A stretch of 64,000 nucleotides of DNA from Candidatus Cloacimonadales bacterium (lineage in GTDB: Bacteria; Cloacimonadota; Cloacimonadia; Cloacimonadales; JAFGVF01): NCBI GenBank assembly GCA_963678315.1, contig OY782781.1, positions 2,496,001 through 2,560,000 of the forward strand, read 5' to 3'. The position numbers and the translations under genes were made by a program. Within the stretch, counting starts at the first letter, position 1, and each line of letters opens with the position of its first letter. Positions 7,819 to 14,500 of the stretch are shown piece after piece. The notes under the pieces are model-generated. The model saw only the letters and a program-made list of their open reading frames with translations. It was not told the origin of the DNA and did not search any database.

Positions 7819-8517
7819 TTAATTATAATTTCTTGCCCCAAATATCGCAGATCCAATTCTTACAATATTTGCCCCTTCCTCGATTGCAACCTCGAAATCA
7901 TGCGTCATGCCCATTGATAAATAGTCCATATCGACATTCTGGAGCTCTGCTTTCTTAATGTTATCAAATATACTTTTTAGTGTCCTGAAATATGGCCTAG
8001 TTACCTCAGGATCTGGATTGAATAGACCAATAGTCATTAATCCTTTTATTTTTATATTTGGAAGTTGAGATATTTTTTCCACTAAATCATAAACTTCTTT
8101 TTCTCCAGCTCCTGATTTACTATTCTCTTGAGTTATATTAACCTGAACAAGAATATCTTGCAGGACATTATGTTTCTCACAATATTTGGATAATTTTTCA
8201 GCTGTGGAATATTTATCTATTGAATGTATTAGGCTTGGTTTTAAAGGTATCAAATCTTTGATTTTGTTAGATTGAAGGTGTCCAATAAAATGAAATTCCT
8301 CATATAAACCAGCAAGCAAGGGAAGCTTATTCTTAGAATCTTGTATTTTATTTTCACCAATATATTTAGCTCCTGCAGCTAGTGCTTCTTTAACAACTTC
8401 TGCTGGGTGTGTCTTTGTCACAGTAATTAATTTTACTGAGTTAGGTGATTTATTCAGTTTAATACAACATTGCTTTATCTTTTCTTCAATATTCTTGTAG
8501 TTTTCTGTTATACTCAT
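7819..8517 (-). CDS. yggS: PLP homeostasis protein YggS/PROSC
   Basis: [47 protein letters not shown]; start chosen from GGAG RBS spacing (ORF track starts at 8529). Confidence 0.93.
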
Positions 8518-8690
8518 TTTATTCTCCATTCTTAATCAAATATTTATTCGATTACATTCATCTTATAAGTTAAACATATTTTTTATAGTCTAATGTCAAT
8601 AAAAATATAATTGAGAGTTAGAATAACCCATTTTTTAAAGTTTGGATGACTGTCTTATTGACATTTTCAATAAGCAGACAAGAGTCACTC

Positions 8691-9192
8691 TGTCTTCATT
8701 ATCAATTGTCTATTATAAATTCATCCTCACATTCCACACGATTGAAATCATAGGTTCAGAGGAGATATGTTCTTCCAGGACGATACAATCTCTTAGCGTA
8801 AGCATGAACTATCTTGTTCAGCATAACGGCGGATGCTTGCACTCCTTTTTCTGAGACGTTTTTCCAAACGTCTCTACAAATTCAAATTCACTTATAACTA
8901 CCTTCTAAGTGAAGCCAGCACGGAGGCTGGCGATCCCAGTATGTCTTCATTATCAATTGTCTATTATAAATTCATCCTCACATTCCACACGATTGAAATC
9001 ATAGGCTCAGAGGAGATATATTCTTCCAGGACGATACAATCTCTTAGCGTAAGCGTAAGCATGAACTTTCTTGTTCAGCCTAACGGCGGATGCTTACACT
9101 CCTTTTTCTGAGACGTTTTTCCAAACGTCTCTACAAATTCAAATTCACTTATAACTACGTTCTAAGTGAAGCCAGCACGGAGGCTGGCGTTC
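8691..9192. repeat. Tandem duplication of a ~251-bp composite palindromic repeat unit (8691-8941, 8942-9192)
   Basis: Near-identical copies (a few substitutions, one 6-nt GCGTAA duplication), each ending in GCCAGCACGGAGGCTGGCG(A/T)TC. Confidence 0.95.
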
Positions 9193-11086
9193 GTACGATA
9201 GTGATATCTAACTATCTGTTAGGTGAAAGTCCTAACCAAATCTTACATCAGAGATTTGTAATTGAATGTAACTGCGTAACCGTGAGGTTGGGTGGGGAGT
9301 AACAGGAAATGAAAGACCAGTCCGTAACATTAGTGAACTCGTTTCGGCAGCTAATAGTGTTGAGCCTCCGATCGCAGGGCGAAAACTGATGATGATAAAG
9401 AGTTTTATCATACACCTGATAAACTGAATGATGTGATAAAGTTATATCAGGACTTTAGATGTGGTAGGAGATGGAATGGTAAGAAGTTAGTTAGAGGTAA
9501 GCTATGAGACCTGAATATAGGTTTAGAGATATATTCAGGAGTCAGAGTTCTCATAGTAGTGATGATACTTAGGACAGCATAACCTAAGAGTAGCGAAGGG
9601 GAACAGGATAATAAAATTTTGAAAGGAGAAACAGATGAAAGAAAAATGTTCGACAGTGTCAAAAGAGACTAAACAAGAACAAGAAGAAAACTCACAACTA
9701 AGATTAGAATGGGAGTGGACAGAATCATCTGTCTGGACAGACAAAATGTTGACAGCTCTCCAAAGGGGAGTCAAAGGTGGCAAATGGTTTAGTTTAATAG
9801 ATAAAGTTTATTCAAAAGCTAATCTGTTATCTGCATGGAAAAGAGTAAAAGCTAATAAAGGTAGTGCTGGAGTTGATAAGATGAATATTTCTCACTATGA
9901 GAAACATCTCGAACAAAGGCTACAAGGCTTAGCTAAACGCTTAGAAATGCAGGAATATAAGCCAAATGCAATTAAAAGGGTAATGATTGATAAACCTGGA
10001 AGTAAGGAGAAACGACCTTTAGGTATTCCAACAGTTGAGGACAGAATAGTTCAAACAGCAATAAGGAATGTAATCGAACCAATATTTGAAATAAATTTTT
10101 CAGATAACAGTTTTGGTTTTAGACCTAAAAGAAGTTGCAAAGATGCACTTAGAATAGTGTATAATAACCTTAACCGAGGCTATCGATACGTAGTTGATGC
10201 AGATTTAAAAGGATATTTTGATACAATACCTAAGTCTAAATTAATGGATTTAGTAAAAGAAGAAATATCTGATAGTCGGGTATTAGAATTGATTGAGAAA
10301 TTTCTAAATCAAAGTATATTTAATGGGCTAGATACATGGATTCCCGAAAAAGGAACACCACAAGGTGCAGTATTAAGTCCACTGTTAGCAAACATCTACT
10401 TGAACAAATTCGACTGGTTAATGAGTAGCAAATACTATCAAATGGTAAGATATGCTGATGATTTTATTATCATGTGTAGAAGCCAGAAAGAATCAGAAGA
10501 AGCTCTTGAAATAGTAAAGCAATGGACGGAAAAAGCTGAGTTAATTCTTCATCCTACAAAGACTAAAATTCTTGATAGTATGCAAGATGAGATAGGCTTT
10601 TTAGGTTATAGATTTGTTAAATCTAAGAACTATGAGAAAATAAAGATTTTCTGAAAGTTTCCTAAACGTAAGAGCGAAAAGAAATTCAAGGATAGTATAA
10701 GAAAACATACTAGAAGAACAAATGGGAAAAGCTTAAAAGAAATAATCAAACGAATAAACCGTATAATTCGGGGTTGGTTTGAATATTATAAACATTGTTA
10801 TAAAAGTACTTTTCCAGGTTTAGATGGTTGGATACGACGGTGATTAAGAAGTATTCTTAAGAAATTTGAAAAACGGAAAGGAATAGCTACAACAGGTAGA
10901 GATAATATCAGATACCCAAACAAAATCTTTGAAGACGCTGGGCTTCTCTCTCTAACCGAAACCCACCGTCAATTATGTCAATCTCTACATAGAGAGTAAA
11001 TTATTATCTGGAGAGCCGTATGCGGGAAAACCGCACGTACGGTTCGGAGGGAGGGGTGTCAGTAATGATAGCACCCCTACCCCTAT
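9193..11086 (+). mobile_element. Group II intron (IIA/IIB-type domain V, AGC triad), no endonuclease domain
   Basis: 5' GTACG (GUGYG-like); domain V GAGCCGTATGCGGGAAAACCGCACGTACGGTTC; domain VI ending CCCCTACCCCTAT; removing it rebuilds GCTGGCGTTC|CCAGT, matching neighbouring repeat copies. Confidence 0.93.
9635..10999 (+). pseudogene. ltrA: Intron-encoded reverse transcriptase/maturase with two in-frame TGA stops (10652, 10841)
   Basis: RPLGIPTVEDRIVQ, SFGFRP, DADLKGYFD, GTPQGAVLSPLLANIYL, RYADD; same frame continues with IRGWFEYY..LDGWIRR*LRSIL..YPNKIF to TAA at 10997-10999. Confidence 0.9.
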
Positions 11087-11231
11087 CCAGTGTTTAGCCA
11101 GCATGGAGGCTGGGCGTTCCCAGTGTTTAGCCAGCGCGGAGGCTGGCGTTCCCAACTAGATTTTACTGTCTTTACTCCATCCTTACTTGCCTCCTTGAAA
11201 AATCGGCTTTTTTTCAAGGAGACCAGTAAGG
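11087..11231. repeat. REP-like hairpin copies (GCCAGC..GGAGGCTGGCGTTCCCA x2) plus a long palindrome CCTTACTTG..TTGAAAAATCGGCTTTTTTTCAA..CAGTAAGG
   Basis: Direct reading; related copies at 8914, 9171, 32058 and 56139. Confidence 0.85.
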
Positions 11232-11573
11232 AAGCACTTAGTGTACACTTTATGCACACTTTTTACATTAATATATATAGATTAGCTTGCAGTCAGTTTA
11301 GTCTTTATATAGAATTTGATCCTCATTAAATACCCTACTTTTAATATTGTGCAACTCAGATTATGAAATTAGCTATCTGGAATATTTCATTGCAAACAGG
11401 TAGAGACCTTGCATAGATTAGTAGATAAATAAACACTGAGATACTTATGTTTTTAAAATATGTTGATTAAATAAGTAATAGCTGTTTTTGTCTTGACATA
11501 TAAAAGGTAAATAATTTTATAATTTTATTTAAGTTTTATTTAAGAAATATATATAATAAATATAGGAGATAAT

Positions 11574-14500
11574 ATGAGAAAAACTATTTTATTCATTTTG
11601 TTACTTTCATTAGTTTTCTCGCTAGCTGCTGACAAATTTGTTGATGGTGCATACGAGAGAAATAATATTGTTGTAAGTTTCAAAATGGACACAATTGGAA
11701 ACATTGATGGTACAATCCCAGTAACTTACGACAATGGTATTGTTCAAACTAACATTGAATCATTTAATCAATTCGCAAGAGATTTCGCAGTAACTGAAAT
11801 CAAACAAGACTGTCCTTTCGTAAAAGACAAAGAATGGAACGATAACGGACAATACATTCAATGTATTTATAAAATTACAATTAAAGATCATAACAGAATT
11901 GAACAAGCTTTAGACACAATTCAAAAAAGCAATGATATTAATTGGGCACAATATGTAACTATTAATAGAACTTATTATACTCCAAATGACCAACTTTATT
12001 CAACACAGTGGTTCATTACTCAAACAGAAACAGATCAAGTTTGGGATTTTGTGAGAGATGCTTCTGATGTTGTTATTGGTATTACTGATTCAGGTATCAA
12101 ATGGAATCACCCAGATCTTCAAGACTTGATATTTATCAACCAAGCAGAAATGAATGGCGCTACTATTGATTGGGAAAACGGTACTTTCACAGGTAATGGC
12201 TTAGATGATGATAATAATGGTAAAGTTGATGATGTAATGGGTTGGGATTTCAACGCTAATGGTGGTGAAGACAACAATCCAATGCAGACTTTTGCAGCTA
12301 ACTATCACGGTACACACGTTGCAGGTTGTGCTTCTGCTGAAGGAGACAATGGCATAGGTACAGCAGGTCCTGCTTTTAATGCTAGATTAATTAACTGTAA
12401 AGGTGCTATCGATAATGGAGAATCAAATGGTATTGCTCAAGGTTACCCTCAAATAGTATATTGTGCTGATTTAGGTGCAGATATTATCAACGCATCATGG
12501 GGTGGACAAACTTCAAGTTTATACTATGCAAATAATTACATCAACTATGCTCACAATCATGGTTCTTTAGTTGTTGCAGCTGCTGGTAACGGAAACTTAC
12601 TTCACGGTAACGGTTATATGGATGCACCTGCTGACTGTGATAACGCTTTTTGTGTTGCGGCATTAGAATTAAATGACACAAAGGCTTCTTTCTCTGATTA
12701 CGGTGATCCTATTGATATTTCAGCTCCTGGTGTACAAATTAGATCTACAATCATCGAAAATAATGGTTGGGGAAATGCTCAAGGTACATCTATGGCTTCT
12801 CCTATTGTAGCAGGTATTGCAGCCTTAGTTAAAGCTGCTCACCCTGAACTTACAAACACCCAAATCAGACAACGTATTGAATATACAGCTGATTATATTG
12901 ATGATATTAACGAAGATTATACAAACCAATTAGGTGCTGGTAGAATTAATGCTTACACTGCTGTTTTATATGATTTAGTTCCTAAAATAAGTGTTGTTGA
13001 ATCTGAACTTACTGAAGTATCAGGCGATAATGATGGTGTAGTTAATCCTGGTGATGTCGCAAGTTTAAAAGTTAGATTAACTAACCATCAAGACTTGAAT
13101 ACAGGTATCTCATGGGCAAACTCTAATGATACTGAAGTTACACTAAGATGTGACTATCCTGGAATCGTTATCCAAGATTCTGTTGCAACTATCGGAAACA
13201 TTGTAGCTGGTAACTTTGTTTGGAATGATGATGAGCCTTTCTCATTTACATCATCTTCAGATGTTACTACTGCTCCAATAGAATTTACTCTTCATATTGT
13301 TTCTAATCAAGATGAAGAAATTCCTTACACAAAAGATATTACTTTTGAAATTAGCCTTTCTCTTAGCCATGCTAACTGGCCTTATGCAACTGATAGCCAA
13401 GCTCAATCTGCTCCTATCGTTTTAGATATGGATGGCCAAGCTGGGGACGAAGTGATTTTTGCTGACTTAGCTGGAAATGTTCATGTTCTTAATGGTGCTA
13501 ACGAAGAAATGTCTGGTTTCCCTGTAAATGTTGGAACTCAAGTACTTCTTCCGGTTGCTATTGGTGATTTAAATAACGATGATACTATGGATATTGCTGT
13601 TGTTAATTCAAGCAAAGAACTATATGCTATTGCTAATGATGGTTCAATTATTTATGGTCCTATATCATTAAACAACCAAATGGTAAAAGCTTCTCCAATG
13701 ATTGCTGATATGAACAACGATGGAGTTAATGACGTTGTTGTATGTACTATGACGGGTACACTTCATATCTTCAACCAAGCTGGTGAAGAACATGATGGTT
13801 ACCCTGTTTCATACACAGGTAACTTTGTCTTTAATAATGCTATAGCTGACATGAATAATGATGGTAGCAAAGAAATTATCCTACAAGCAATTAATGGTAA
13901 CATCTTAGTAATAGATTATAATACAACTGAAAATATAGATGGTTTCCCATTTGCTATTGGTGCAAACACTGAAGCTGCTCCTATTGTAGTTAACTTAGAT
14001 GATGATAATTATCCTGAACTATTAGTTACTGAACATTCTTCTGGAATGATATTTGGTGTTGACCATGATGGTTCTACATTGTTCTCACACCAAATGAATA
14101 TCACAATTAAAAAAGATGTTCTTGTTGCTGACTTCAATGGAGATGGTGCTAAAGAAATCTTATTTGTATCATATAATGGTAATGTTGGGGCAATTAACCT
14201 AGATGGTGAATACCTTCCTAACTTCCCACTAGATATGGGTGGTTTCTTAGAAGGAAATATGATTCTAGCTAATCTTGACGGTGACGGACTATGCATGATT
14301 TTTGGTGATGCAGCTGGTTACTTACATGCTATCAAATCTGACACTTCAGAAGCTAATAACTTCCCTATTTACCTTAATGATAACTTAAAATTCACTCCAG
14401 CTATAGGTGATGTTGATGGTGATGATGATTTAGATATTGCTGTTGCTAACATTTCAGGAATGCAATTGTTAGATATGAAACGTAATGGTTATGGTGCTTG

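Follow-up and report, generated by a model that had tools for sequence, protein, structure and literature searches.

A complete group II intron of 1894 nt interrupts a repetitive extragenic palindrome (REP) in a 64,000-nt stretch of the genome of a Candidatus Cloacimonadales bacterium (contig OY782781.1, positions 2,496,001 to 2,560,000; this whole stretch is called the window, and positions refer to it unless given as genome positions). We consider it likely that this is a mobile intron of a compact lineage whose protein carries no endonuclease (En) domain and which chooses its insertion sites in the style of class C (IIC) introns, and that the tails of REPs associated with REP-associated tyrosine transposases (RAYTs) satisfy its requirements in this genome.

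The intron starts with GTACG and ends with CCCCTAT in a direct reading of the window, and excising 9193-11086 restores GCCAGCacggagGCTGGCgttc joined to CCAGT. Domains V and VI match the Rfam model RF00029 at 11011-11086 (62.7 bits, E = 5.5e-11; gathering score 40); a scan of the whole window with Rfam returned this domain V/VI match only, and 'Acido-Lenti-1' was not found. A consensus fold was obtained with RNAalifold for the 5' part of 11 homologous introns, in which compensatory changes occur at 64 of the 105 consensus pairs and IA, IB, IC, a long ID and domains II and III are resolved. The six-domain group II secondary structure is thus backed by covariation. The ribozyme is compact, with domains I to III spanning 412 nt, and the region of domain III (9503-9601) shows a weak match with RF01998 (17.5 bits, below threshold). 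An initial annotation, made from the letters of the window, had given the same intron boundaries and splice junction, an insertion 4 nt 3' of a hairpin, an AGC catalytic triad, and unoccupied REP copies at 8914, 11097 and 11130; direct reading bears out all of these positions. The window contains 4 matches with the REP motif; the expectation from 100 shuffles is 0.00. A promoter and terminator scan of 8400-11650 gave no signal (9 promoter-like sites vs 12.8 expected).

The closed 2.99-Mb genome contains four domain V matches, two of which come from the REP-inserted intron. Copy 2 (genome 1079282-1081175, minus strand) shows 11 differences in 1894 nt from the window copy (99% identical) and is placed after GCCAGCTagcAGCTGGCgttc and before CCAGT, at a phosphodiester bond identical to that used by the window copy. 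The REP of copy 2 differs from the window REP in both its hairpin loop and its stem sequence, and the outer flanks are unrelated; independent insertion is therefore favoured over segmental duplication. These agree with the proposal of the initial annotation that the REP is the target, since both copies sit at the same bond of a RAYT-linked repeat. Among four sequencing runs, X4 contains a contig with an intron resembling copy 2, and fragments of this intron or of related ones occur in X9 and X20. An orthologous empty site was not found in the nearest genomes, which belong to another genus and have a flanking gene of ~73% identity and unalignable intergenic DNA.

The intron-occupied repeats are genuine REPs, because RAYT-like transposase genes carry these repeats on their flanks. 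Nine genes in the genome encode Y1 transposases (PF01797, above the cut-off). The gene at genome 1115148-1115717 has seven inverted copies of the hairpin and tail on one side and four direct copies on the other, and the gene at genome 1110286-1110825 is likewise bordered by inverted REPs of its own family. Other PF01797 paralogs have hairpins with different stems and related tails (the same tail in three, GCGTTCCCTAT in one and unrelated flanks in two). The best NCBIfam match of the two PF01797 proteins scanned is 'REP-associated tyrosine transposase' (NF047646), at 61-62 bits, which is below the cut-off of 80. Genome-wide, the REP hairpin motif has 79 matches and GCG[AT]TCCCAGT tails occur 196 times, with exact counts of 142 for GCGTTCCCAGT and 54 for GCGATCCCAGT; TCCCAGT is found 459 times (expectation ~164), and 58% of these occurrences are outside the long open reading frames (ORFs), which span 87% of the genome. 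The occupied REP of the window is that of the second of two tandem units (Table 1), in which 8686-8803 is 97% identical with 8937-9054 and 8795-8935 is 96% identical with 9052-9192.

Table 1. Features of the intron and of the adjacent REPs in the window
Feature	Position	Strand	Basis or remark
Tandem pair of mosaic repeat units (251 and 257 nt), both finishing in REP hairpin and tail	8686-9192	+
5' exon end: REP hairpin GCCAGC-acggag-GCTGGC, then GTTC (6-bp stem, 4-nt spacer)	9171-9192	+	direct reading
IBS1, GCGTTC	9187-9192	+	direct reading, exon/EBS1 comparison
Complete group II intron, 1894 nt	9193-11086	+	direct reading, Rfam match, second copy, covarying fold
Ribozyme domain I	9193-9510	+	covariation fold: IA 9218-9236, IB 9237-9258, IC 9261-9310, ID 9316-9480
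12-nt one-sided loop in ID, coordination-loop position	9326-9337	+	consensus fold; G9333 is candidate EBS3
EBS1 stem-loop: GCCT (9364-9367), loop CCGATCGCA (9368-9376), GGGC (9377-9380), then GAA	9364-9380	+
EBS1, GATCGC, positions 3-8 of the 9-nt loop	9370-9375	+	stem covariation and exon covariation
Domain II hairpin core	9513-9536	+	consensus fold
Domain III	9547-9604	+	consensus fold
Reverse transcriptase/maturase ORF in domain IV, 454 codons, two in-frame TGA	9635-10999	+
In-frame TGA, codon 340, between RT and X domains	10652-10654	+	kept in 7 related copies
Second in-frame TGA, codon 403, in the RRRLR motif of the X domain	10841-10843	+	private to window copy
Domain V, 33 nt; distal stem 4 bp, loop 5 nt	11013-11045	+	triad AGC at 11014-11016
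Domain VI	11046-11086	+	helix read directly; bulged A11079 is candidate branch point
3' exon start CCAGT, remainder of the REP tail	11087-11091	+	IBS3 is C11087
Two more unoccupied REP copies in tandem (11097, 11130)	11097-11156	+

Several further observations concern the repeats and their surroundings. The tandem units at 8686-9192 are mosaics of several hairpin modules, and their module GCGTAAGCATGAAC...GGATGCTTACACTCC is the repeat flanking the RAYT gene at genome 1121495-1122034. Downstream of both intron copies (at 11180-11232 in the window) lies an inverted repeat of 23 bp whose interior includes an A/T run (TCCTTACTTGCCTCCTTGAAAAA...); it is itself dispersed, being present in >10 other places in the genome. 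Six Y1-transposase genes (two IS200-like and four RAYT-like; L030-L032 and L035-L037) are found within 22 kb (genome 1104220-1126245) around dnaA (1105068-1106375), most of them bordered by a hairpin-repeat family of their own. Seven identical 246-aa ORFs (e.g. at genome 13553-13984 and 257840-258271) give equally weak matches with the DnaA ATPase (49.3 bits) and probably encode the helper ATPase of a multi-copy insertion sequence. The cumulative GC skew has its minimum at 0.73 Mb and its maximum at 2.0 Mb, with dnaA at 1.105 Mb, ~0.37 Mb from the minimum, and the REP orientation switches near 1.05 and 2.04 Mb; the replichores appear to be unequal, or the origin not to be at dnaA. Depending on which origin is assumed, copy 2 falls on one or the other replication strand, so that no strand preference can be read from it.

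The other two domain V matches in the genome come from an unrelated intron with RF02003-type domains I to IV, an AGC triad and a reverse transcriptase (RT) of 47% identity. Its copies (L004:1133-3039, genome ~982661-984567, plus strand, and genome 2874731-2876270, minus strand) are 99.5% identical, share 43 nt of the upstream and 6 nt of the downstream flank, and have the RT split across two frames. They lie outside REPs, and a hairpin directly 5' of the splice site is absent in both.

Target hairpins and EBS1 loops of related introns

Homologous introns were taken from other Cloacimonadota genomes, from metagenome contigs and from one Cupriavidus plasmid, and 23 distinct insertion sites were compared, identical 25-nt upstream flanks being counted once. 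A stem of 5 bp or longer, ending 0-7 nt (mostly 3-4) before the 5' splice site, is present at every one of the 23 sites but at only 32% of 3000 positions drawn at random from the genome; when 6 bp are required, 18 of the sites and 15% of the random positions qualify. The target hairpins differ wholly in sequence between genomes, being REPs in the present genome and in two sister genomes, GGGCAGACacacagGTCTGCCC repeats in the genome G027 and CCCATAGCtgacGCTATGGG repeats in the genome G013.

Exon-binding site 1 (EBS1), which pairs with intron-binding site 1 (IBS1) at the end of the 5' exon, had been placed at 9370-9375 in the initial annotation, with folding of domain I as the check. In the consensus fold this hexamer lies in the loop of a covariation-supported hairpin of subdomain ID, whose stem pairs covary among the 11 homologs (alignment columns 174-177 with 187-190), and the loop covaries with the 5' exon. 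The loop hexamer and the last six exon nucleotides form on average 5.13 of 6 pairs over the 23 sites, compared with 3.04 in mismatched intron-site combinations, and pairing is complete at seven sites. For example, EBS1 TAGCGT stands with IBS1 ACGCTA in L042, ACTAAA with TTTAGT in the Cupriavidus plasmid, TAGGGT with CCCCTA at four of the five distinct sites in G027 (six copies), and GAGTGT with CCACTC in a 5' fragment from a sister genome that also holds a GAGCGC/GAGTTC copy. This 205-nt fragment (L084; G001:C1:2667357-2667562) stands behind a hairpin of its own, GATGCAaggaTGCATCcactc, and its EBS1 suits its own site and differs from that of the full copy in the same genome. At the site of L080 only two of six pairs form, and the loop there may be mis-detected; the site of L039 is represented by 17 upstream bases only. 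Judged from these sequences, the related introns of other genomes have re-tuned EBS1 loops and insert at hairpin repeats unrelated to this REP.

In the window, GATCGC pairs with GCGTTC at five of six positions, with an internal U-T mismatch, and the GCGATC variant would pair perfectly. The perfect match that the initial annotation had seen between EBS1 and the unoccupied copy (8930-8935) is thus real, but it concerns the minority tail (54 copies), whereas the occupied GCGTTC belongs to the majority (142). Similarly, the suggestion that the intron is programmed for this REP holds for both copies in this genome but does not extend to the relatives. A second exon pairing, of AGCCTCC with GGAGGCT, had been regarded as possibly coincidental. 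It is a chance match and was rejected, because all relatives, irrespective of target, have GAGCCU as their conserved EBS1 stem, and the target of copy 2 lacks GGAGGCT. No EBS2 stem-loop was found: in the consensus fold, the stretch from the coordination loop (9326-9337) to the EBS1 hairpin gives off no helix. At the candidate EBS3, the nucleotide (G or A) is compatible with the initial base of the 3' exon in nine of the 12 intron lineages compared by eye and mismatched in the other three. One metagenome contig (L054:2737-3244) carries a match with group II domains V and VI (57.5 bits) and, ~225 nt further on, a match with group I introns (RF00028, 68.6 bits).

We propose that a target site would combine a DNA stem-loop with a short EBS1-pairing exon sequence located 0-7 nt beyond it, and that one 3'-exon base probably pairs with a nucleotide of the coordination loop. 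The 6-nt EBS1 GATCGC would pair with GCG(T/A)TC, so that about 200 RAYT-associated REP tails in this genome (a hairpin, then GCGTTC followed by CCAGT) would meet these requirements, two of them being occupied, and insertion would be harmless because REPs are extragenic. From what is known of En-less and IIC introns, the intron would reverse splice into the hairpin-bearing strand, and its cDNA would be primed by nascent strands at replication forks; a passage in Zimmerly & Semper 2015 (PMC4424553) has En-less introns primed by leading or lagging strands at the fork.

Relation to class C introns and other explanations

The hallmarks of IIC introns listed in a passage of Toor et al. 2006 (PMC1702495) include a CGC triad, a short domain V, a 3-4-bp EBS1 and, in the epsilon-prime region, an 11-nt bulge with a conserved AGGAA, and the same source, in part of its text, mentions 'other inverted repeats' besides terminators as IIC targets. 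Hairpin targeting is ascribed to class C only in a passage of Zimmerly & Semper 2015 (PMC4424553). The intron shares with class C its insertion behind a hairpin, the absence of EBS2 in ID and an intron-encoded protein without D/En domain, and among RTs of solved structure its best matches are those of IIC introns (7uim, 213 bits; GsI-IIC, 208 bits) compared with 144 bits for IIB and 140 bits for IIA. AGGAA is present at 9304-9308 in the internal loop of IC; it is missing from L020 and so not a constant feature of the clade, and the loop departs from 11 nt in the consensus fold. RF02001, the model for domains I to IV, matches every canonical IIC intron of the set with 117-146 bits, including an integron-attC intron of Klebsiella and an intron adjacent to a terminator. 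The Cupriavidus plasmid relative (L055, 50% identical) reaches 34.4 bits with this model against a gathering score of 32, and L045 and L048, which combine an AGC triad with a 3-bp distal stem and 47-bit RF02001 matches, are intermediates. An RT tree was built from 24 rows, with the truncated ORFs L050, L057 and L060 left out; its labels come from RNA features and not from curated classes, and classes A, B, E, F and g1-g4 are not identifiably sampled in it. Ten members of the lineage form one clade (support 99/99) in this tree, and five introns with CGC triads and RF02001 matches form another (98/98).

Several observations weigh against a mobile intron with IIC-style targeting of REP tails. On the side of class C, the triad is AGC in the window and CGC in the canonical relatives (L046, L047, L049, L050 and L026); domain V, whose distal stem in IIC introns is 2 bp below that of IIA and IIB, measures 33 nt with a 4-bp distal stem here, compared with 30 nt and 3 bp in canonical L046, L047 and L049; the EBS1-IBS1 register is of 6 nt and not of 3-4 bp; RF02001 gives no match in the window at E values up to 10; and the lineage clade is not nested in the canonical IIC clade, the relationship being unresolved at a node of 88/91. 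On the side of the target, 70 of the 196 tails have no adjacent perfect stem of at least 4 bp, only two of ~198 tail-bearing sites are occupied, and both of these carry the majority GTTC variant, where EBS1 pairs at five of six positions with an internal U-T mismatch, while the 54 perfect GCGATC sites are empty. By tail variant the occupancy is 2 of 144 for GTTC and 0 of 54 for GATC, insertions too few to indicate a preference. The low occupancy also qualifies the view of the initial annotation that the REPs are a multi-copy 'safe harbour', which is plausible in itself. As for activity, the RT carries TGA codons, run X21 of raw RNA yielded 0 reads, and neither the run data nor the promoter scan gave evidence of transcription, splicing or current mobility. 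The read joints listed lie in repeat DNA; their sides do not exceed 30 nt except in two joints between opposite strands (32 and 54 nt), and they are uninformative on splicing and empty sites.

The label 'non-IIC' of the initial annotation is accordingly borne out by domain V, the length of EBS1 and the RT clade, but not by the choice of site, the absence of EBS2 and En, or the closest RTs of solved structure, which are those of IIC introns. In our reading the lineage is near class C and works in an IIC-like manner, with several features of membership absent; the choice of site follows the IIC mode though the intron is not a canonical IIC.

Could the lineage simply be a divergent bacterial member of class C, with nothing new about it and its AGC triad, longer domain V and 6-nt EBS1 as mere variation within the class? 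The way it targets its sites, its compact size and the fact that it has neither EBS2 nor En are hallmarks of IIC introns; the Cupriavidus relative and the two intermediates point the same way, and Toro & Martinez-Abarca 2013 (PMC3552965) mention, in a passage of their paper, class C ORFs outside the main node. We nevertheless regard this explanation as unlikely, because the RT clade is separate and not nested and three defining IIC RNA features are lacking. A sequence-specific IIB-like homing intron, whose homing site happens to be a REP with an incidental hairpin, would agree with the 6-nt EBS1-IBS1 pairing, the AGC triad, the IIB length of domain V and the presence of both copies in one repeat family. 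It is highly improbable, however, since the relatives stand behind hairpins of unrelated sequence and the part of the site that varies with the intron is confined to the 6 nt preceding the junction, no EBS2 stem-loop is present, and the two occupied REPs differ in loop and stem. That the copies arose from DNA duplication or from REP/RAYT-mediated block movement, with the intron a dead relic, can be given hardly any credence: REP clusters are recombination-prone, the RT has in-frame TGAs and the window copy a private nonsense codon, but identity between the copies stops at the intron boundaries and the REP core with unrelated outer flanks, relatives have from one to at least six copies per genome, each at a hairpin with matching EBS1, and selection on the RT is strongly purifying (omega 0.04-0.12).

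In-frame TGA codons of the RT/maturase

The ORF in domain IV scores 405 bits against TIGR04416 (group II RT/maturase equivalog; cut-off 300). Pfam finds RVT_1 and GIIM only and no En domain in it, and the 454-aa protein ends after the X domain. The TGA at codon 340 is carried by seven copies, namely both copies in this genome, three in two other genomes (93% amino acid identity) and two in metagenome contigs (one of only 80% identity); equivalent codons are at L017:2518-2520 and L039:1508-1510. The TGA-bearing sequences form a single clade (SH-aLRT, an approximate likelihood-ratio support, of 92), and six full-length sister proteins of 75-81% identity have Trp at this position. The 111 codons 3' of this TGA show omega values of 0.04-0.12 at a synonymous divergence of 0.5-0.6, the same as the upstream part. 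The X domain has thus been under selection since the TGA arose, which suggests that codon 340 is a candidate for programmed read-through, which would most simply be by tRNA-Trp. An alternative genetic code was rejected, as TGA ends 90 of 1222 long ORFs without extension and table 11 holds. Codon 340 may instead be decoded as selenocysteine, since ARAGORN predicts a tRNA-Sec (anticodon TCA) at genome 2291151-2291245 on the minus strand; folds after codon 340 resembling a selenocysteine insertion sequence are weak (-3.4 to -6.5 kcal/mol, z from -0.3 to -1.3) in two of three sequences. The presence of tRNA-Sec indicates that the organism probably makes selenoproteins.

The second TGA, at codon 403, is found in the window copy alone, the codon being CGA in copy 2 and AGA in L017, L019 and L039. 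Because of this private TGA the window copy is probably not autonomous, and the protein of copy 2 could serve it in trans. Genomes with the TGA at codon 340 have one or two intron copies, and G013 and G027, whose copies are without TGA, have at least six each. No description of read-through in an intron-encoded protein was found in the open-access literature.

Comparison with known systems and significance

The intron resembles the IIC introns B.h.I1, GsI-IIC and that of O. iheyensis in its insertion a few nt past a DNA stem-loop, the lack of EBS2 and En, its compact size and its intergenic, multi-copy occurrence. It differs from them in having AGC for CGC, a 33-nt domain V, a 6-nt EBS1, no RF02001 match and a separate RT clade, and its hairpins are REPs, not terminators, with no T-run after the hairpin. 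Like the IIC-attC introns (the S.ma.I2 lineage at integron attC hairpins), it is specialised on one abundant family of recombination sites that fold as single strands. However, the IIC-attC introns, represented in our set by a Klebsiella plasmid intron between aadA2 and dfrA12 (L056), are canonical in triad (CGC) and RF02001 match and target the site of an integrase, whereas the target here belongs to a Y1 (RAYT) transposase system. REPs are also landing sites for the group II intron of Pseudomonas putida KT2440 and for ISPpu9, ISPpu10 and IS1397. According to a passage of Tobes & Pareja 2006 (PMC1525189), two of nine copies of the P. putida intron are REP-associated, a minority, and EBS1-REP pairing is not described there; in the present genome both copies are at one bond of the REP tail and EBS1 matches.

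The repeats themselves are like the REP/RAYT systems of Proteobacteria (REPINs) in combining GC-rich palindromes with a conserved flanking motif, in having hundreds of extragenic copies and in the inverted REPs around RAYT-like genes. They differ in their Cloacimonadota host, in having several RAYT paralogs with hairpins of their own and a shared G(T/A/C)TCCCAGT-type tail, and in a RAYT match below the NCBIfam cut-off. A leaky UGA decoded as Trp is familiar from the read-through protein A1 of phage Q-beta. As in that protein, an in-frame UGA stands here where Trp would be encoded, with selection still acting on the domain downstream; unlike A1, the candidate read-through is located in a group II intron RT/maturase and is known from sequence.

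Neither a REP-programmed EBS1 nor the mix of features in this lineage was found described in the open-access literature. It is possible, though we put this forward only tentatively, that the Cloacimonadota genomes and the Cupriavidus plasmid harbour an undescribed hairpin-targeting lineage apart from canonical class C, which would track the commonest hairpin repeats of each host by re-tuning EBS1 and here would be the parasite of a selfish element, with one subclade throttling its RT through a read-through UGA. Hairpin-directed insertion has so far been taken as a signature of class C, with terminators and attC sites as targets, and the same strategy is seen here in a lineage with non-IIC features of the catalytic core and a full 6-bp EBS1. 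The 23 sites, with at least 10 EBS1 sequences matched to hairpin targets, are a natural series that could guide rules for retargeting compact En-less introns. The most surprising by-product is the conserved UGA in place of Trp; should it be read through, it would represent a new means by which a group II intron restricts the protein it encodes, in keeping with the lower copy numbers in that subclade. An intron aimed at REPs amounts to one selfish element inside another, and as its insertion cuts the conserved REP tail, it may disable that REP for its transposase.

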